Shown here in pieces: positions 5,430-28,146 of a stretch of 64,000 nt of DNA. Both the position numbers and the translations under genes were made by a program. Every line of letters starts with the position of its first letter. Positions within the stretch are counted from its first letter, which is position 1. Origin of the DNA: an uncultured Bacteroidota bacterium (GTDB taxonomy: Bacteria > Bacteroidota > Bacteroidia > Bacteroidales > P3); the NCBI GenBank assembly GCA_902783595.1, contig CACZRR010000025.1, positions 1,999-65,998 on the forward strand. Direction: 5' to 3'. Below the pieces are notes generated by a model. The model was given only the letters and a program-made list of their open reading frames with translations. It was not told the origin of the DNA and did not search any database.

Positions 5430-5450
5430 CCCCCAACGTAAACCGTTGCG

Positions 5451-5541
5451 CAAAACGCAAAACGTCAAACGTAAAACGTCAAACATCAAACGTAAAACGT
5501 AAAACGTAAAACGTCAAACATCAAACATAAAACGTCAAACC
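5451..5541 (+). repeat. Tandem array of 13 heptamers (consensus TMAAACG)
   Basis: CAAAACG CAAAACG TCAAACG TAAAACG TCAAACA TCAAACG TAAAACG x3 TCAAACA x2 TAAAACG TCAAACC. It fills most of the ettA-to-lipoprotein spacer. Confidence 0.9.
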
Positions 5542-5564: not shown

Positions 5565-6701
5565 ATGAAAAAAATCATGCACCTCCTCTGTGCTGCCATG
5601 CTGCTGGTATCCTTCGCGGCATGCACCGAGAAAGACAACGAGAACGGCGGCGACGGCAGCTACGCCTCCCTCATCATCGGCAAATGGAATGTGGACGTCA
5701 TCACCATCAACGGCAACGACATGACGCCACAGAACATGCAGCTCTCCTTCTCCCGCGACGGCAGCGGCGTCATGATCCACAACGGCGTCAGCGAGAACAA
5801 CGGCTTCTCATGGTCCTTCAGCGGCAACGTCATCAACGTCACCACCCACCGTGACGAGTTCTCCTTCACCGTCGACACCATTTCGTCCAGCTTCTGCGCC
5901 TTCCACGGCAGCTACCTCGTCCTCGATCAGGAATACCACGGCGACATACGCTTCATGCTGAGCAAGGTCAGCGGCGGCGGCAACCCCGACCCGGGCGACC
6001 TCGGCATCGGCACCCCCGAGCTCTCCTACAGCACCTCCAACTCCATCACCGTCCATGCCCACGTCACAGGCAGCGTCGGACAATACCTCGACCAGTTCCC
6101 CAACTACTCCTGCGGCATCGTCTGGTGCCCCTCCTGGGACGGCACACCACTCCTGGGACGCAACAACACCATCGTCGCCAACCCCGACTCCGACGGCAAC
6201 TTCGAGATCTCCATCGCACACCTCCAGGTCGAGTCAGAGTACAACATCGTCTCCTGGCTCAAGCTCACACCCACGAGCGACCCCATCTATAGCGACATGC
6301 GCACCTACTCCACCAGCAACGCCCCCGGACAGAACGACACCAACTGGATCAACCTCATCAGCGCCATGCCCACCGCCAGCAGCACCGCCTTCTCCGTCAT
6401 CATCAAGGCCTACTTCGACGGCGACCCCATAGGCATCGGCGTCGTCTACAACACCAGCGGCAACCCCACCCTCAGCGACAACGTCTACAACGGCTTCGAC
6501 CACATCGACATGCAGACCGGCGAGACCGACGCCACCATCCAGCGCATGCAGGAGAACATCGACGGCTCGCGCACCGTGGCAGCACTGATTGGCGGCGTGC
6601 AGCCCGGCACCACCTACCACGTCCGCGGATACATGCAGTTCTCCGACGGCTCCCCCACCATCTACACCGACGAACAGACCGTCACCACATCCGCAAAATA
6701 A
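5565..6701 (+). CDS. Lipoprotein, function unknown
   Basis: 378 aa. Lipobox signal peptide (LLVSFAAC). Ser/Thr/Asn-rich beta-type sequence. Confidence 0.8.
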   Translation: MKKIMHLLCAAMLLVSFAACTEKDNENGGDGSYASLIIGKWNVDVITINGNDMTPQNMQLSFSRDGSGVMIHNGVSENNGFSWSFSGNVINVTTHRDEFSFTVDTISSSFCAFHGSYLVLDQEYHGDIRFMLSKVSGGGNPDPGDLGIGTPELSYSTSNSITVHAHVTGSVGQYLDQFPNYSCGIVWCPSWDGTPLLGRNNTIVANPDSDGNFEISIAHLQVESEYNIVSWLKLTPTSDPIYSDMRTYSTSNAPGQNDTNWINLISAMPTASSTAFSVIIKAYFDGDPIGIGVVYNTSGNPTLSDNVYNGFDHIDMQTGETDATIQRMQENIDGSRTVAALIGGVQPGTTYHVRGYMQFSDGSPTIYTDEQTVTTSAK

Positions 6702-6768: not shown

Positions 6769-6855
6769 GCTCAAGGATGTTAGCCATCCAGCAAACAAAA
6801 CACCTGTTGAGAAAAGTGAGATTTCCGTACGCTATCTTGTGGACATTTTGTCCAA

Positions 6856-6944
6856 TTGATGTTCGATTGATGTTCGATTGTTGTTCGATTGTTGTTCGAT
6901 TGGCAATCGAACAACAATCGAACATCAGACGAACAAGAAACGAC
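6856..6944. repeat. Palindromic array of 11-nt units (TTGWTGTTCGA x4, then inverted copies)
   Basis: Left arm has 4 tandem 11-mers; the right arm is their reverse complement. 12/12 bp pair around the centre at 6903, and the stem extends imperfectly to ~40 bp. Confidence 0.9.
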
Positions 6945-7862: not shown

Positions 7863-10800
7863 ATGACTGAGTTCACACATCTGCACGTACACTCGCACTA
7901 TTCGATGCTCGACGGGATGTCGAAGATCCCCGATCTGGTGAAGAAGGCCAAGAAGAACGGTATGTATGCCCTGGCCCTGACGGACCACGGCAATATGTTT
8001 GGCATCAAGGACTTCCTGGACACGGTGCAGAAGGAGAACAAGGGGCGTGGCGAGGGGGAGCCGCTGTTCAAGCCCATTGTGGGCATCGAGGCCTACTGTG
8101 CGCGGCGCACGCTCTACGACAAGGATAAGAACTTCAAGAGCATCAACCCCGAGACGGGGCGCGAGCGTGTGGTGGACCGCAGCGGCTACCACCTGATCCT
8201 GCTGGCCAAGAACCTGCAGGGCTACCACTCGCTGTGCAAGCTGACGTCGATAGCATATACCGACGGTTTCTACGACCGTCCGCGCATCGACCATGCGCTG
8301 CTGGAGAAGTACCACGAGGGGGTGATATGCAGCTCCGCCTGCCTGGGCGGCGAGGTGCCGCAGCTGATCATGGAGGGCGACCTGGAGGGTGCCGAGAAGG
8401 CAGTGGTGTGGTTCAAGGAGCTCTTCGGCGACGACTACTACATCGAGCTGATGCGTCACAAGACCGACAAGCCCAATGCCAACACCGACACCTACCGGTG
8501 GCAGATGAAGGTGGAGCCCGAGCTGGTGCGTCTGGCGCGGAAGTACGACATCAAGCTCATCGCCACCAACGACGCGCACTTTGTCGAGGAGGAGCATGGC
8601 GAGGCGCACGACCACCTGATCTGCCTGGCCACGCAGAAAGACTACGACGACCCGAACCGCATGCACTACACCAAGCAGGAGTGGCTGAAGAGCCCCGACG
8701 AGATGGCGGAGGTTTTTGCCGACCTGCCGGAGGCGTTGGCGAACACCATGGAGGTGGCGGAGAAGGTGGAGGTGTACAGCATAGACAGCGACCCGCTGAT
8801 GCCCGTCTTCCCCATCCCCGAGAGCTTCGGCAAGGAGGAGGAGTGGCGTGAGAAATTCACGGAGCAGCAGCTCTTCGACGAGTTCACGCGCAACGAGAAG
8901 GGCGAGGTGGTGATGGAGCAGGAGGCCGCTGAGAAGAAGATCAAGAAGCTGGGGGGCTACGACAAGCTGTACCGCATCAAGTTCGAGGCCGACTACCTGG
9001 AGCACCTGGTGTGGCAGGGTGCGCGGAAACGCTACCTGATGAGGGCGGAAGCTAATAACTCCGACCTTCGACCTCCGACCTCCGACCTGGAAATCAAGGA
9101 GGCCCTCAGCGAGGAGCAGCGCGAGCGCATCGTCTTCGAGCTGCACACCATCAAGACCATGGGCTTCCCCGGCTACTTCCTCATCGTGAGCGACTATATC
9201 CGTGCCGCGCGTGAGGAGCTGGGCGTCAGCGTAGGTCCCGGCCGCGGCAGTGCGGCAGGCAGCGTGGTGGCCTACTGCCTGTGGATCACGGACCTCGACC
9301 CCTTGCGCTACGACCTGCTGTTCGAGCGCTTCCTGAACCCCGACCGTATCTCGCTGCCCGATATCGACGTCGACTTCGACGATGCGGGGCGCGGCAAGGT
9401 GCTGGAGTGGGTCACCAAGAAATACGGCAAAGAGCGTGTGGCGCATATCATCACCTATGGCACCATGGCCACCAAGAGCTCCATCGCCGACGTGGGACGT
9501 GTGGAGAAAGTGCCGCTGAGCACCGTCAACCAGCTCAAGGGCTACATCCCCGAGCGCAACTTCCCCGACGGTCTGAAGGGCGACGACGGCAAGCCGCTGG
9601 CCAAGCCGCCGAAGGTGAACCTCAAGAACTGCTACAAGTACGTCCCGGAACTCAAGGCCATCATGCAGGACGGTCCCGACGACCTGCGGCGCATGCTCAC
9701 CTATGCCGAGGAACTCGAGGACACCAACCGCCAGATCGGCATCCACGCCTGCGGCGTCATCATAGGCTCGCAGGACATCACCAACATAGCGCCTGTCTGC
9801 GTCATCAACGACAAGGAGAGCGGCGAGGATGTGCTGGTGACGCAGTACGATGGTCATGTGGTGGAGAACGTAGGCCTCATCAAGATGGACTTCCTGGGGC
9901 TGAAAAACCTCACCATCATCAAGAACTGCATCCGCATGGTGAAGAAGCGCACGGGCGAGGAGATCGACATCGACCACCTGCCGCTGGACGACGAGCTGAC
10001 CTACAAGCTCTTCTGCGAGGGCAACACCGTGGGTGTGTTCCAGTTTGAAAGTGCGGGCATGCAGAAGTACCTGCGGGAGTTGCAGCCCCACGTCATCGAC
10101 GACCTCATCGCCATGAACGCCCTCTACCGCCCGGGTCCCATGGACAACATACCCGAATTCATCGACCGCAAGCAGGGCCGCAAGCCCATCAGCTACGACC
10201 TGCCGGTGATGGAGAAATACCTGAAGGAGACCTACGGCATCACCGTCTATCAGGAGCAGGTGATGTTGCTGAGCCGTCTACTGGCGGGCTTCACACGCGG
10301 CCAGAGCGACACATTGCGCAAGGCCATGGGCAAGAAGCAGATCGACAAGATGAACGAGCTGGAGGTGCTCTTCTACGAGGGCGGCGAGAAGAACGGCCAC
10401 CCGCGGGAGGTGCTGAACAAGATCTGGGAGGAGTGGAAGAAATTCGCCAGCTACGCCTTCAACAAGAGCCATGCCGCCTGCTACTCGTGGGTGGCGTACC
10501 AGACGGCCTACCTCAAGGCGCACTACCCTGCCGAGTATATGGCTGCCGTGATGACGAGTGCCCAAACCGACATCAGCCGCGTGCGCGAGCTCATGGACGA
10601 CTGCAAGAAGCACGGCATCGAGGTGGCGGCGCCGAGCGTCAACAGCAGCGAAATGGACTTCAGCGTCGATGCCGACGGCAAGATACGCTTCGGGTTGCAG
10701 GCCATCAGCGGCATGGGCGAAGCCGCCTCGGGGGTGATCATCGCCGAGCGCGAGAAGAACGGTCCCTACCAGGACATCTTCGACTTCCTGAAGCGCATCG

Positions 10801-11735
10801 ACATGCACTCCGTGAACAAGAAGAACATGGAGGTGCTGGTGAAGGCGGGCGCCTTCGACGGTGTGGGCACGATGCACCGTGCGCAGTATTTCTACAAAGA
10901 GAACCAGCTGGAGACCACGCCCACGTACCTCGACCTGCTGGTGCGCTGGGCCATACGGCGCCAGGACGGCGCGGCGAGCAACCAGATGAGCATCTTCAGC
11001 ATGAGCGCAGAGCTTGCCGAGGAGGACCATCCGCCGATACCCGTCTGCGACGAGTGGAGCACCCTCGACCGCTGCCGCGCCGAGAAGGAGGTCATCTCCA
11101 CCTATCTCTCGGGGCATCCCCTCGACGACTTCCGCTACGAGATGAAGCTCTTCACCAACACCCCCGTCAGCGCCCTCGCCAACCTCGAGGCCCTCGTCGG
11201 CAAAGAGGTCACCTTCGGCGGCATGGTGTCGGGCGTGAAAGGCGGCATCTCCTCCAGGGGCAACCCCTACGGCTCTATGGTCATCGACGACTACACCGGC
11301 AGCTACGAGTTGCGCCTCTACGACGAGGAGTACACCAACTTCAAGAACCTCTTCATCGACGGCACCTTCATCCACTGCCGTGCCACCGTGCGCAGCACCA
11401 CCTATACCGACAAGAAGACCGGCGCCGAGAAGAGCTTCACGCGTATGCGCATCCTCTCCATGACGCTGCTCTCCGGCGTGCTGGACAAGTATATCGCGCG
11501 TGTGGCTTTCACCGTGCCCCTCGAGCGTGTGGACACCGCCTTCTGCCGCCAGCTCGAGCGGCTGGCCAAGCGCCACAAAGGCAGCGTGCCGCTACAGGCC
11601 ATCGTCGTCGACGCCTCGCAGAAGCTCACCCTCACCCTCAACACCACGGCTTTGCGCGTCAACCCCCACGACATCCTCGGCGAATTGGAGCAGTTGCCCG
11701 GCGTCACCGCCGTGAAGCCCATCCCAAAAAGTTAA
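7863..11735 (+). CDS. dnaE: DNA polymerase III subunit alpha
   Basis: 1290 aa. PHP domain start (FTHLHVHSHYSMLDG), GFPGYFLIV, the PDIDVDF catalytic motif and a C-terminal OB region. Confidence 0.97.
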   Translation: MTEFTHLHVHSHYSMLDGMSKIPDLVKKAKKNGMYALALTDHGNMFGIKDFLDTVQKENKGRGEGEPLFKPIVGIEAYCARRTLYDKDKNFKSINPETGRERVVDRSGYHLILLAKNLQGYHSLCKLTSIAYTDGFYDRPRIDHALLEKYHEGVICSSACLGGEVPQLIMEGDLEGAEKAVVWFKELFGDDYYIELMRHKTDKPNANTDTYRWQMKVEPELVRLARKYDIKLIATNDAHFVEEEHGEAHDHLICLATQKDYDDPNRMHYTKQEWLKSPDEMAEVFADLPEALANTMEVAEKVEVYSIDSDPLMPVFPIPESFGKEEEWREKFTEQQLFDEFTRNEKGEVVMEQEAAEKKIKKLGGYDKLYRIKFEADYLEHLVWQGARKRYLMRAEANNSDLRPPTSDLEIKEALSEEQRERIVFELHTIKTMGFPGYFLIVSDYIRAAREELGVSVGPGRGSAAGSVVAYCLWITDLDPLRYDLLFERFLNPDRISLPDIDVDFDDAGRGKVLEWVTKKYGKERVAHIITYGTMATKSSIADVGRVEKVPLSTVNQLKGYIPERNFPDGLKGDDGKPLAKPPKVNLKNCYKYVPELKAIMQDGPDDLRRMLTYAEELEDTNRQIGIHACGVIIGSQDITNIAPVCVINDKESGEDVLVTQYDGHVVENVGLIKMDFLGLKNLTIIKNCIRMVKKRTGEEIDIDHLPLDDELTYKLFCEGNTVGVFQFESAGMQKYLRELQPHVIDDLIAMNALYRPGPMDNIPEFIDRKQGRKPISYDLPVMEKYLKETYGITVYQEQVMLLSRLLAGFTRGQSDTLRKAMGKKQIDKMNELEVLFYEGGEKNGHPREVLNKIWEEWKKFASYAFNKSHAACYSWVAYQTAYLKAHYPAEYMAAVMTSAQTDISRVRELMDDCKKHGIEVAAPSVNSSEMDFSVDADGKIRFGLQAISGMGEAASGVIIAEREKNGPYQDIFDFLKRIDMHSVNKKNMEVLVKAGAFDGVGTMHRAQYFYKENQLETTPTYLDLLVRWAIRRQDGAASNQMSIFSMSAELAEEDHPPIPVCDEWSTLDRCRAEKEVISTYLSGHPLDDFRYEMKLFTNTPVSALANLEALVGKEVTFGGMVSGVKGGISSRGNPYGSMVIDDYTGSYELRLYDEEYTNFKNLFIDGTFIHCRATVRSTTYTDKKTGAEKSFTRMRILSMTLLSGVLDKYIARVAFTVPLERVDTAFCRQLERLAKRHKGSVPLQAIVVDASQKLTLTLNTTALRVNPHDILGELEQLPGVTAVKPIPKS
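9041..9087 (+). repeat. Heptamer element inside dnaE (short GAGGGCGGAAG arm, loop, then TCCGACC-type x4)
   Basis: TCCGACC TTCGACC TCCGACC TCCGACC at 9060-9087, translated in-frame as NSDLRPPTSDL. Confidence 0.85.
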
Positions 11736-11736
11736 T

Positions 11737-11771
11737 CCACTTTCCACTTTCCGTTTTCCACTTTCCACTCC
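11737..11771 (+). repeat. Five tandem heptamers (CCACTTT family) forming the dnaE-to-GSCFA spacer
   Basis: CCACTTT CCACTTT CCGTTTT CCACTTT CCACTCC lies between the dnaE TAA (11733-11735) and the ATG at 11774. Confidence 0.9.
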
Positions 11772-11773
11772 CC

Positions 11774-12733
11774 ATGATAGCCCTCAACACTCCCGTCAGT
11801 GTCTCTCCCCTCCCCTTCACGGTGGACTTCGACAGCGGCATCGTCACCCTGGGATCGTGCTTTGCCGACGAGGTGGCACAGCGTCTGCTCGACGGTGGCT
11901 TCCGCGTCGACGCCAACCCTTTCGGCACCCTCTACAACCCTGCCTCCATCGCCGCGGCGTTGCAGCGCATCATCGACGACCGCGAGGTGGGTGCCGCCGA
12001 CCTTGTCGAGCGCGACGGCCTCTGGCATTCGTGGCACCACCACGGCGCCTTCTCGCGGCGGAGTGCTGAGGAGTGCCTCGACGCCTGCAACGGGCGTCTG
12101 CATGAGGCACACCGTCACCTGCGCCAGGCGCGGCTGCTCATGGTCACCTTCGGCACCGCCTGGATCTATGAGTTGAGGTCGGAGGTCGGAGGTCGGAAGG
12201 CGGCAGCTTCACAAGACACCTCCGACCTCCGTCTTCCGACCTCCGCCTTCCACGTTGTGGCCAACTGTCACAAAGTGCCGCCGCAGGCCTTTGTGCGGCG
12301 CATGATGGATGTCGACGAGATCGTGCAGCTGTGGCGTCCCCTGCTGCAACAGCTCTCCACTTTCAACCCTCACCTTTCCGTCATCTTCACCGTCTCCCCC
12401 ATCCGTCACCTGGCCGACGGTGCCCACGGCAACCAGCTCAGCAAGAGCACCCTGCTATTGGCTGTCGACCCACTTTCCACTCACATGGTGAGCCCGTCGA
12501 ACCACCACTCTCCACTTTCCACTTTCTACTTCCCCTCTTACGAGATTGTGCTCGACGAGCTGCGCGACTACCGCTACTACGGTCAGGATATGACGCATCC
12601 CACGGCGCTGGCTGTCGACATCGTCTACGAGCGTCTGCAGGGCGCCATCATGACCCCCGCCGTCGTGCAGCAGGCGCACCTCAACGCCAAGCGTCAGCGC
12701 CGCGACCGGCACATACCCCTGCACCAGTCATAA
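11774..12733 (+). CDS. GSCFA-family protein
   Basis: 319 aa from the ATG at 11774. Has the eponymous motif (VTLGSCFADEV) plus TFGTAW, VVANCHK, SPIRH and YFPSYEI..DELRDYR blocks. Confidence 0.85.
   Translation: MIALNTPVSVSPLPFTVDFDSGIVTLGSCFADEVAQRLLDGGFRVDANPFGTLYNPASIAAALQRIIDDREVGAADLVERDGLWHSWHHHGAFSRRSAEECLDACNGRLHEAHRHLRQARLLMVTFGTAWIYELRSEVGGRKAAASQDTSDLRLPTSAFHVVANCHKVPPQAFVRRMMDVDEIVQLWRPLLQQLSTFNPHLSVIFTVSPIRHLADGAHGNQLSKSTLLLAVDPLSTHMVSPSNHHSPLSTFYFPSYEIVLDELRDYRYYGQDMTHPTALAVDIVYERLQGAIMTPAVVQQAHLNAKRQRRDRHIPLHQS
12175..12251 (+). repeat. Inverted-repeat heptamer hairpin inside the GSCFA gene
   Basis: Left arm is GAGGTCG x3 + GAAGGCG (12175-12202). Loop is ~17-19 nt. Right arm is CTCCGAC CTCCGTC TTCCGAC CTCCGCC (12220-12247). 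Read in-frame as RSEVGGRKAAASQDTSDLRLPTSAF. Confidence 0.9.
12470..12534 (+). repeat. Second heptamer element (CCACTTT family) inside the GSCFA gene
   Basis: CCACTTT CCACTCA, a 21-nt spacer, then CCACTCT CCACTTT CCACTTT CTACTTC. Read in-frame as PLSTHMVSPSNHHSPLSTFYF. Confidence 0.8.
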
Positions 12734-18854: not shown

Positions 18855-19880
18855 ATGAAAAAGAATATAGCCCTCGTGATGGGTGGCTTCAGCGGCGAGC
18901 ACGACATCTCGATTGCCAGCGGACGTCAGGTCTATGAGCAGTTGGACCATAGTCGCTACAATGTGTACAAAATTGTGGTGGATCGTGCGGGCTGGTACTG
19001 GGAATGCGGCGACGAGCACAGACCCATCGACCGCGGCGACTTCACCGTCATCGATGCCGGCGTCACGGTTCATTTTGATTTAGCCTTTATCATCGTGCAT
19101 GGCAACCCCGGCGAAAACGGCGTGTTGCAAGGTTACTTCGATATGCTGGGCATCCGCTACACCACCTGTGGTTACTACACCTCCGCACTCACCTTCCATA
19201 AAGGCTACTGCAACCCCGTAGTAAAAAACTTTGGCATCGTCAAAGTAGCCAACTCGGTTCTGCTATATAAAGAACAGTGGGAAGTGGAAAGTGGGAAGTG
19301 GAAAGATGGAATAGTGCCAACCGACTCTCCGCAATCCTCTCTTCATCTCCCCGTTTTCGTGAAGCCGGCTGCCGGCGGCAGCAGCGTTGCCACCACCAAG
19401 GTGAAGAGCCCCGAGGCCCTGCCCGCCGCCATCCGTGAGGCTTTCACAGAAGATAGCGCAGTGCTGATAGAGGAAGCCATTGTAGGACGCGAGTTTGACT
19501 GCGGCGTATTCCGCAATGCAGACGGAGAATTGCTCCTGTTCCCTATCACCGAAATTATACCCAAAGGTGGACATGAATTCTTCGACTATGCTGCCAAGTA
19601 TGAGGGTTTCAGCAGCGAGGTGACCCCCGCCGAGGTCGACGAGCACACGGCACAACACATACAGGCGGTGTCGGCACAGCTCTACGAACGCCTGGGATGC
19701 AAAGGCATCGTACGCTTCGACTACATCCTCGACAGCGCCAACAACGAGCTCTACTTCCTGGAGGTGAATACCATCCCGGGACAGAGTGCAGAGAGCATCG
19801 TACCCAAACAAGCCCGTGCCATGGGCATCACGCCCGCCCAGCTCTACCAGATGAGCATCGAGGCGGCGATGAATAAGTGA
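18855..19880 (+). CDS. ddl: D-alanine--D-alanine ligase
   Basis: 341 aa. GGFSGEHDISIASG, HGNPGENG, FVKPAAGGSS and EVNTIPG motifs. Confidence 0.92.
   Translation: MKKNIALVMGGFSGEHDISIASGRQVYEQLDHSRYNVYKIVVDRAGWYWECGDEHRPIDRGDFTVIDAGVTVHFDLAFIIVHGNPGENGVLQGYFDMLGIRYTTCGYYTSALTFHKGYCNPVVKNFGIVKVANSVLLYKEQWEVESGKWKDGIVPTDSPQSSLHLPVFVKPAAGGSSVATTKVKSPEALPAAIREAFTEDSAVLIEEAIVGREFDCGVFRNADGELLLFPITEIIPKGGHEFFDYAAKYEGFSSEVTPAEVDEHTAQHIQAVSAQLYERLGCKGIVRFDYILDSANNELYFLEVNTIPGQSAESIVPKQARAMGITPAQLYQMSIEAAMNK
19277..19311 (+). repeat. Five tandem heptamers (AGTGGRA family) inside ddl
   Basis: AGTGGGA AGTGGAA AGTGGGA AGTGGAA AGATGGA, read in-frame as QWEVESGKWKDG. Confidence 0.85.
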
Positions 19881-19910
19881 ATAGTGAAAAATTAAAAGTG
19901 AAAAGTTAGA
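19876..19910 (+). repeat. Five tandem heptamers (AGTGAAA family) forming the ddl-to-asnS spacer
   Basis: AGTGAAT AGTGAAA AATTAAA AGTGAAA AGTTAGA, running from the ddl stop codon to 1 nt before the asnS ATG. Confidence 0.85.
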
Positions 19911-19911
19911 T

Positions 19912-28071: not shown

Positions 28072-28146
28072 TGATCTGCACAAGATTTGAACTTGTGACC
28101 TCTTGCCTGTCAAGCAAGCGCTCTAAACCAACTGAGCTAGCAGATC
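28072..28146 (-). tRNA. tRNA-Val (anticodon GAC)
   Basis: Manual cloverleaf: acceptor GATCTGC/GCAGATC, D-stem GCTC/GAGC, anticodon stem CTTGC/GCAAG with loop TTGACAG, T-stem ACAAG/CTTGT with loop TTCAAAT. CCA is not encoded. Confidence 0.9.

Follow-up and report, generated by a model that had tools for sequence, protein, structure and literature searches.

A heptanucleotide tandem-repeat array resident in frame within the D-alanine--D-alanine ligase gene of an uncultured Bacteroidales bacterium

Families of heptanucleotide repeats have been on record since 1990, and their origin and function are still unexplained. Here we describe such an array inside ddl, the gene for D-alanine--D-alanine ligase (Ddl), on a stretch of 64,000 nucleotides (nt) from an uncultured Bacteroidota bacterium of the order Bacteroidales (GenBank assembly GCA_902783595.1, contig CACZRR010000025.1, positions 1,999 to 65,998 of the forward strand). 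This whole stretch is called the window, positions are counted from its first letter, and the loci and proteins compared with it are cited by L and P numbers. It was found that the ddl array is a resident copy of a heptanucleotide tandem-repeat family of uncultured rumen and gut Bacteroidales.

The closest described repeats are the prokaryotic long simple sequence repeats (LSSRs) of Mrazek, Guo and Shah (2007), among which heptamers are over-represented and for which polymerase slippage was proposed, as two later papers summarise (PMC4679880, PMC4692102). By one of these summaries, the LSSR survey found repeats in coding regions to have mostly unit lengths in multiples of three (PMC4679880). 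The arrays described here share with LSSRs the tandem 7-nt units, the excess of period 7, the many arrays per genome and the lineage-specific abundance, but about half of the period-7 arrays lie in open reading frames (ORFs), ddl and dnaE included, and the hosts are uncultured rumen Bacteroidales. The cyanobacterial STRRs are cited in PMC4692102 as three tandem heptanucleotides in Calothrix PCC 7601, and GGGGA(T/C)T and GGGAATC repeats have been described in Nostoc and Xanthomonas (PMC4692102). As in these systems, a few units are reused at many loci, in both orientations and sometimes as inverted pairs, and sequence and length at the same intergenic site vary between related species. Here, however, the units are unrelated, the phylum is another, residence in coding sequence is prominent and the G tracts of G-quadruplexes are lacking; the units of the clade are mostly AT-rich (30% GC), and the AGTGGAA and CGGAGGT families of the window are richer in G+C. 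TAACTGA direct repeats occur in marine Beggiatoaceae, some cyanobacteria and five Bacteroidetes, where they lie upstream of start codons and a post-transcriptional role was proposed (PMC4679880). The window likewise has arrays directly upstream of starts (11736-11769 and 19878-19911) in which stops within the unit limit placement, but the unit is another, and the ddl array has no stop and lies within a gene. Rickettsia palindromic elements, which Ogata et al. are said to have described in 2000, are reportedly dispersed elements of ~100-150 bp that are similar along their whole length and lie in frame in conserved or essential genes. The ddl array resembles them in being repetitive DNA that might form a hairpin, in frame, at a tolerant surface position and patchy among orthologues; it differs in that copies share the 7-nt unit alone, most arrays are non-palindromic and there is no evidence of transposition. 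In the library of papers searched, none connected heptamer repeats to the Bacteroidales. The present locus goes a little further than the earlier descriptions in three respects: frequent in-frame residence in conserved genes, loops reused by arrays of different units, and cassette-like exchange of the Ddl linker. We consider it probable that the ddl array is a heptamer repeat of the STRR/LSSR type tolerated in a permissive loop of Ddl, with a local inverted origin, a length frozen by the reading frame, turnover of units, exchange of linkers and no function of its own.

In a phmmer search of the PDB, the ddl product matched 4fu0 best (E 1.8e-42) together with 36 other Ddl/Van entries. An AlphaFold (AF2) model of the window Ddl, with a mean predicted local distance difference test score (pLDDT) of 74, gave Foldseek template modelling (TM) scores of 0.72-0.79 against Ddl/Van ligase structures, and PF01820 and PF07478 are the precomputed Pfam domains of P0001, a protein identical to the window Ddl. 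The product is a genuine D-Ala-D-Ala ligase with N-terminal and ATP-grasp domains. An earlier note on this DNA had reported five tandem heptamers in frame inside the gene and in the linker before the conserved ATP-grasp block. The frame is that of a real ligase by the PDB and structure matches, and in the alignment the array lies directly upstream of VFVKPAAGGSS, as the note had placed it. The units were also as given (AGTGGGA 19276-82, AGTGGAA 19283-89, AGTGGGA 19290-96, AGTGGAA 19297-19303 and AGATGGA 19304-10), but the array starts at 19276 and not at 19277; a degenerate sixth unit, AAAGAAC (19269-19275), stands ahead of the five clear ones. The peptide from the five units is QWEVESGKWKDG, in the context ...LLYKEQWEVESGKWKDGIVPTDSPQSSLHLPVFVKPAAGGSS... 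(also written ...VLLYKEQWEVESGKWKDGIVPTDSPQSSLHLPVFVKPAAGGSS...). Tandem Repeats Finder (TRF) reported 5.6 copies of period 7 and 2.1 copies of period 14, the latter with 100% match.

Period-7 arrays of at least four units were obtained in 0 of 100 second-order Markov simulations of the window, and the window itself has no arrays for periods 5, 6, 8-10 and 12. By these simulations and the comparison of periods, chance or codon-usage periodicity was ruled out as the source of the array. A census of arrays of at least four units covered 1.52 Mb, made up of the window and related loci from metagenome-assembled genomes (MAGs) of uncultured rumen and gut Bacteroidales (RUG, RGIG and UBA series; 'bacterium P3'; Ca. 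Colimorpha). It contained 73 arrays of period 7, as against 1, 5, 7, 3, 2 and 0 of periods 5, 6, 8, 9, 10 and 12; period 11, with 16 arrays, was the second most enriched in the related loci. AGTGGAA, AGTGAAA, AATTGAA, AATTGAG, AATTAAG, AGGTTAA and AATGAAA were the recurring units. They belong to a narrow AT-rich set (30% GC, compared with 54% in the genomes), in which 20-26% of unit pairs have at most one mismatch, compared with 3.8% of random heptamers of the same composition. The proposal that units are genome-specific was weakly supported, as such pairs made up 26% within loci and 20% between loci. Of 90 arrays with three or more units, half lay deep in long open frames, which by this crude open-frame test make up ~92% of the sequence; arrays are therefore enriched between genes, yet common within them. 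AGTGGAA arrays were found in frame elsewhere as well, encoding VESGKWKVKS in an ORF of L008/L032, a putative L-aspartate oxidase by the look of its sequence, and EVESGKWKVEI in an ORF of L028. On contigs of the viral collection IMG/VR (L094-L166), exact three-unit matches to the AGTGGAA and AATTCTC arrays were observed on 17 and 56 stretches, respectively. Some of these have multiple arrays; L134, for instance, bears five of AATTCTC within 8.5 kb, and L096 has four AGTGGAA matches.

The alignment with Ddl orthologues (A1) comprised 29 close sequences with 76-81% identity to the window. Ten extra residues (QWEVESGKWK, QWSVTSGQWK or QWKVESGKWK) are present in the window and in P0002-P0005, and 24 of the 28 close orthologues are without the peptide. 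None of the 80 GTDB relatives was seen to have the peptide, and the insertion was absent from all 51 GTDB-representative ddl loci with a parsable linker. A DNA pattern built around the loop (AGTGGAARGATGG...CCGACTC) and searched across metagenomes retrieved one contig, of the already-known P0003 type. The insertion site follows strand VLLYK and precedes strand VFVKP, where a solved Ddl homologue is gapped. Mapping onto the AF2 model, in which the flanking strands were modelled, placed the array in a low-confidence loop before the first strand of the central ATP-grasp domain, with pLDDT of 49-55 over residues 141-160 and short strands at 142-143 and 148-149. In the model the insertion is a surface loop, possibly a small beta-hairpin, between the N-terminal and central domains. 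Linker length across the Ddl family ranges from 21 to 35 residues. That the array does no more than give the enzyme a small extra loop at its surface would explain why it is tolerated, and on the reading we favour the encoded QWxVxSGxWK would be a benign, beta-hairpin-like decoration, the array being without a function of its own in Ddl.

Both ddl and dnaE are presumably essential; ddl is a single housekeeping gene, and its off state would be lethal. Whichever of its three frames a 7-nt repeat cycles into, the units AGTGGAA, AGTGGGA and AGTGGTC present no stop codon, and six units amount to 42 nt or 14 codons, which preserves the frame. In ddl, a gain or loss of one or two units through slippage would be expected to kill the cell, only 3-unit steps would survive, and the length of the array would thereby become frozen. 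The strain-level check of copy number proposed in the earlier note covered 14 conspecific assemblies from different samples, 99.0-99.6% identical, all of which had the same length in the ddl array and in the ddl-asnS spacer array, with point differences only; no copy-number difference between strains was found at either place. The reading-frame constraint is the expected explanation for the constant length of the ddl array. All carrier blocks likewise consist of six units (42 nt), equal in length in the five carrier lineages (window, P0002-P0005). A contingency locus, in which copy number switches ddl or varies the protein, comes to mind because each 7-nt unit gained or lost shifts the frame and tandem repeats are classic slippage substrates. 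Given the lack of length variation in the 14 assemblies and the five carrier lineages, the expected lethality of the off state and an imperfect array of only 4-6 units, we regard it as extremely unlikely; with no length change among the conspecific assemblies, the ddl array is very probably not a phase-variation switch. The locus would thus illustrate the fate of such repeats in the gene of an indispensable enzyme, where stop-free units, multiples of three units and permissive loops alone are admitted, and where length freezes and units go on reshuffling.

The DNA of the other carriers (Table 1) is still repetitive although the unit variants differ between carriers. The four peptide-bearing orthologues use heptamer DNA, and the case that would have refuted the earlier note, orthologues with the peptide but with non-repetitive coding DNA, was not found. 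The exchanges E to S, E to T and K to Q between carriers need up to three substitutions per codon and are seen as parallel whole-unit changes with 14-nt periodicity, which argues for intra-array mispairing or conversion and not for independent point mutation. By such events the array units may be reshuffled. Between strain L087 and the window, 7 of 1061 positions differ, and a reciprocal G/A swap exactly 7 nt apart (19281 and 19288) inside the array accounts for two of them. Third positions of the AGTGG-core codons Q141 (CAG), V144 (GTG) and S146 (AGT) are identical in four lineages, compared with 28% for synonymous third positions gene-wide. The unit AGTGACC has a TGA in one register and is missing from exactly that array position where the TGA would be in frame. 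The spacer unit AGTGAAA, one base from the ddl unit, contains a stop and can therefore lie only outside the gene.

These carriers also bear on the possibility that the loop is useful to Ddl, as a Trp-containing beta-hairpin QWxVxSGxWK that serves interaction or stability, the repetitiveness of the DNA being a relic. The loop length and residues Q141, W142, V144, S146, G147, W149, K150, D151 and G152 are invariant across carriers, the AF2 model has the short strands mentioned above, and the cassette is as old as the divergence of the carrier genes. However, the invariant residues are those set by the invariant AGTGG core, synonymous positions included, and the variable residues change through whole-unit swaps. 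Moreover, a Ddl with 97% identity outside its linker lacks the loop altogether and has an unrelated 13-residue linker, the GTDB relatives lack the loop as well, and the peptide recurs in unrelated proteins wherever an array lands. A useful loop is therefore thought improbable.

The comparison of whole Ddl sequences suggested that linkers have been exchanged. The view that carriers form a clade with a single gain of the insert was rejected, because in a linker-free tree carriers were interleaved with non-carriers and pairwise identities showed the same: the carrier P0003 is 97% identical to P0018, which has the unrelated 13-residue linker SMDDMPKTQHLKL, and only 92%, 88% and 82% identical to other carriers. 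It was replaced by an old cassette combined with recombinational replacement of the linker. Compared at the DNA level in windows of 60 nt, L001 (535-1560) and L174 (1317-2297) show 92-100% identity over ddl and the flank upstream of it, but in the linker (35 vs 21 residues) identity falls to ~25% over ~100 nt, with edges within ~25 nt of the arrays. The sequence right after the stop codon is also unrelated between these two loci. Both the Ddl linker and the 3' end of ddl look like recombination breakpoints, as far as these sequence comparisons go, and linker alleles may have been swapped between lineages by homologous recombination. The non-carrier allele of L174 has an unrelated 42-nt sequence and no 'empty site', which points to allele replacement and not to insertion or excision. 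Among carriers the cassette is 68-87% identical at the nucleotide level and the rest of the gene 75-82%; the divergence of the cassette matches that of the gene, indicating that the cassette is old and not recently spreading. In strain contigs reached via other Ddl variants, the upstream gene order was different.

A second, decayed array of opposite orientation lies downstream of the left arm (Table 1). In L001, CTCTCCA CTTTCCA CTCTCCA CTTTCCA is found 25 nt downstream of the array and encodes SPLSTLHFPLF, and the right arm of the window is orthologous to it. The reverse complement of the L001 right arm is alternating AGTGGAA/AGTGGAG, i.e. the left-arm unit. The right-arm peptide occurs without the left arm in non-carriers, e.g. 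L010/P0065, P0007 and P0080; L018 and L035 have perfect and independent AATTCTC x4.5 arrays, encoding DDSQFSILNSQL, in the same register of the same Ddl linker, and strain single-nucleotide polymorphisms at 19336 and 19347 shift the right-arm units towards AATTCTC/TTTCCCC. We infer from these alignments that the linker of the Ddl family may long have been made of heptamer array. The AGTGGAA block of the left arm might then have arisen as an inverted copy of the older downstream array, via template switching during replication. An inverted partner array within 120 nt was found for 9% of arrays, compared with 1.6% in shuffled-unit controls (about 5-fold).

The two arms can pair in every carrier; the hairpin of the window has a z score of -1.3, that of L001 one of -2.2 and that of L003 one of -3.4. 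The window hairpin is no better than shuffles, and no covariation support was found for the ddl hairpin (alifold term +0.17, 1 of 22 pairs compensatory). Across lineages, each arm has decayed independently of the other. A search of the window against Rfam 15 at the gathering threshold gave no match at the array or hairpin, the sole hit being a tRNA (28072-28146). A selected RNA hairpin in ddl was considered unsupported in view of the z score, the missing covariation and the independent decay of the arms. The broader idea that the arrays are functional nucleic-acid elements, either tandem sites bound by a protein or RNA that recognises the heptamer or mRNA hairpins, comparable to the role proposed for the TAACTGA repeats, the ddl copy tuning, for example, translation or decay of a ddl-asnS transcript, could account for the narrow set of related AT-rich units in many genomes, for conserved positions such as the ddl stop in at least six lineages and spacers filled up to the next start codon, and for the conserved synonymous sites of the AGTGG core. 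The pairing that can be drawn in every carrier and the z of -5.5 for a hairpin in the GSCFA-family gene agree with it too. Besides the results on the ddl hairpin and Rfam, it is opposed by the use of different units per species in orthologous arrays, by mixed orientation relative to the downstream gene and by the location of about half of the arrays in ORFs at seemingly protein-tolerant sites. We judge this idea to be rather improbable.

The inverted arrangement might alternatively mean that the ~85-nt unit of left array, loop and right array is a small mobile palindromic element, comparable to those of Rickettsia, that inserts in frame at loop-coding sites and moves between genes and genomes. 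Both ddl and GSCFA contain cassettes of inverted arrays, and a version built of 11-mers lies at 6848-6943; inverted partners are enriched as given above, and the cassette is patchy over Ddl backbones with sharp edges. In L058 and L067 the GSCFA turn is taken up by short palindromes, and IMG/VR contigs bear these heptamer arrays too. Nevertheless, 91% of arrays have no inverted partner, the non-carrier allele is an unrelated 42-nt sequence, and no conserved termini, target duplications or shared loop were observed between the ddl and GSCFA cassettes, the heptamer unit alone being common to them. Furthermore, cassette divergence tracks the host gene, with no sign of recent spread. A mobile palindrome is thus regarded as quite improbable.

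Several points weigh against a tolerated, functionless repeat. The long survival of the cassette would be unexpected for a purely deleterious passenger, and slippage alone fails to explain why the same few related units recur at unlinked loci in many genomes; an additional factor is implied, whether a preference for certain sequences, ectopic conversion, mobility or binding by a protein. Across carriers with Ddl that are ~81-92% identical outside the linker (the near-identical P0002/P0003 apart), the residues encoded by the AGTGG core (Q, W, V, S, G, W, K, D, G) do not vary, and on these sequences selection on the loop at the protein level cannot be separated from homogenisation at the DNA level. 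The inference of concerted evolution rests on four distinct carrier lineages. An active, sequence-biased process that generates or maintains repeats, seeding a narrow set of related heptamers again and again into permissive sites, homogenising nearby loci and letting linker cassettes move between species, is in our view unlikely, though not remote. The seeded sites would be loop-coding positions of ddl and dnaE, gene ends and intergenic spacers. If such a process exists, it would be a Bacteroidales counterpart of the cyanobacterial STRR system, a dedicated recognising protein would be possible, and the origin of heptamer families would be testable by comparing the many available MAGs. The practical value of the locus is modest unless the heptamer family has a dedicated mechanism. 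On the favoured reading of a tolerated repeat, conserved proteins of this rumen lineage bear peptides that are by-products of repeats (ESGKWKVE, NSQFSIL, SPLSTLHFP and SDLRPPTSDL). This has consequences for annotation and for phylogenies built on alignments, and it cautions against taking 'hypervariable' linkers for more than the outcome of repeat turnover and recombination.

Table 1. Coordinates, unit composition and basis of the ddl array and the other repeat features of the window.
Feature	Position	Strand	Content	Basis
ddl, D-alanine--D-alanine ligase gene, array host	18855-19880	+	ORF, 341 aa	PDB, Foldseek and Pfam matches
Left arm, six-unit heptamer block	19269-19310	+	42 nt/14 codons, encodes KEQWEVESGKWKDG	TRF, orthologue blocks, alignment gap
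Spacer/loop between arms	19311-19325	+	ATAGTGCCAACCGAC, encodes IVPTD	Register comparison; predicted hairpin loop
Right arm, decayed array of opposite orientation	19326-19352	+	TCTCCGC AATCCTC TCTTCAT CTCCCC, encodes SPQSSLHLP	Orthologue register
Units of the window			AAAGAAC AGTGGGA AGTGGAA AGTGGGA AGTGGAA AGATGGA	
Units of L003			AGTGACC AGTGGAA x4 AGATGGG	
Units of L001/L002/L005			AGTGACC AGTGGTC AGTGACC AGTGGTC AGTGGAA GGATGGT	
Units of L004			AGTGACC AGTGGTC AGTGACT AGTGGTC AGTGGAA AGATGGG	
dnaE array, in frame	9059-9090	+	CTCCGAC x4.6, encodes SDLRPPTSDL	dnaE 7863-11735, Pfam PHP and Pol III alpha domains
dnaE-GSCFA spacer array	11736-11769	+	TCCACTT x4.9, fills the spacer from dnaE stop to GSCFA start (ATG 11774)	Predicted unstructured
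Inverted pair, in frame in GSCFA-family gene (11774-12733)	12173-12245	+	GAGGTCG x4, 15 nt, ACCTCCG x4	Hairpin -52.2 kcal/mol, z -5.5
CCACTTT-family arrays in GSCFA, in frame	~12468-12485; 12503-12533	+	Two units; 4.4 units	10-aa insertion vs L004 orthologue
ddl-asnS intergenic array	19878-19911	+	TGAATAG TGAAAAA TTAAAAG TGAAAAG TTAGAT	Begins at ddl stop, runs to asnS ATG 19912; predicted unstructured, minimum free energy 0
Intergenic array, longest in the window	5449-5535	+	~12 units AAAACGT/CAAACGT/CAAACAT	30 nt upstream of hypothetical ORF 5565-6701, no Pfam match

All period-7 arrays of the window are confined to 5.4-20 kb, and none of at least three units was found in 20-64 kb. The ddl unit is the reverse complement of the CCACTTT family upstream of it, as had been noted from the sequence, and this AAGTGGA family occupies four sites in both orientations: ddl (19276-19310), the dnaE-GSCFA spacer, where it has the orientation opposite to that of the ddl array, and the two CCACTTT-family sites in GSCFA. 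The AGTGAAA-like spacer array said to lie just past the end of ddl was also found. The further claim of a second conserved gene with an array was borne out by dnaE, whose in-frame CTCCGAC array lies within a lineage-specific insertion of ~20 aa that is absent in 12 of 14 orthologues; it falls in a part of the protein that could not be aligned with solved Pol III alpha. In the dnaE orthologue P0146 (alignment A4, columns 452-485), a different insertion of ~30 residues, GLKVEGGGLKENTPATDISPSTFHPQPSTHNL, stands exactly at the insertion site of the window, which makes this another reused permissive site.

In the GSCFA-family gene, a beta-turn that reads VFEREGQVV (9 residues) in ~25 loci is a hot spot and is expanded by differing arrays to 32-36 residues, 32 of them in the window. 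At the same turn, L004 (1169-1260) has AGTGGTC x4 with inverted units downstream and L075 (4474-4580) has AAYTCTC arrays of one orientation. Short perfect palindromes (CCCCTCTCT..AGAGAGGGG) were observed there in L058 (~9289) and L067 (~9435), and the stem changes between these two loci preserve pairing. In the Ddl proteins P0112 and P0057 (A1 columns 55-70), a second in-frame insertion in the N-domain, GLTPQPPHLGGEGEQRIP, is closely like the palindrome-encoded GSCFA insertion of L058 (LTPQPPHLSSEGER), which suggests, as judged from sequence likeness, that the same small palindromic sequence is present in two unrelated genes.

Arrays that start at or overlap the ddl stop were found in at least six lineages, with differing units (window, L016 ~10988, L035 ~11002, L051 ~10990, L055 ~11038 and L064 ~2167/L071 ~10990). 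Stop-containing units such as TAGTGAA, TGAGAAT, TGAAAAG and TAGTGGG occur among them; owing to the 7-nt period, a run of 21 nt of such units has a stop in every reading frame. The intergenic array at 5449-5535 is the best candidate for strain-level variation in copy number. At 6848-6943, an intergenic array of 11-nt units (ATTGWTGTTCG x4) runs directly into its reverse complement (CGAACAACAAT CGAACATCAGA CGAACAAGAAA), the two forming a long, hairpin-capable inverted pair. The CGGAGGT family comprises three arrays of the window, that of dnaE and both arms of the GSCFA pair. Unit families are common to neighbouring arrays: dnaE has one in common with GSCFA, and the spacer one in common with both GSCFA and ddl. 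This distribution of units hints at local spread or ectopic conversion among neighbouring arrays of the window.

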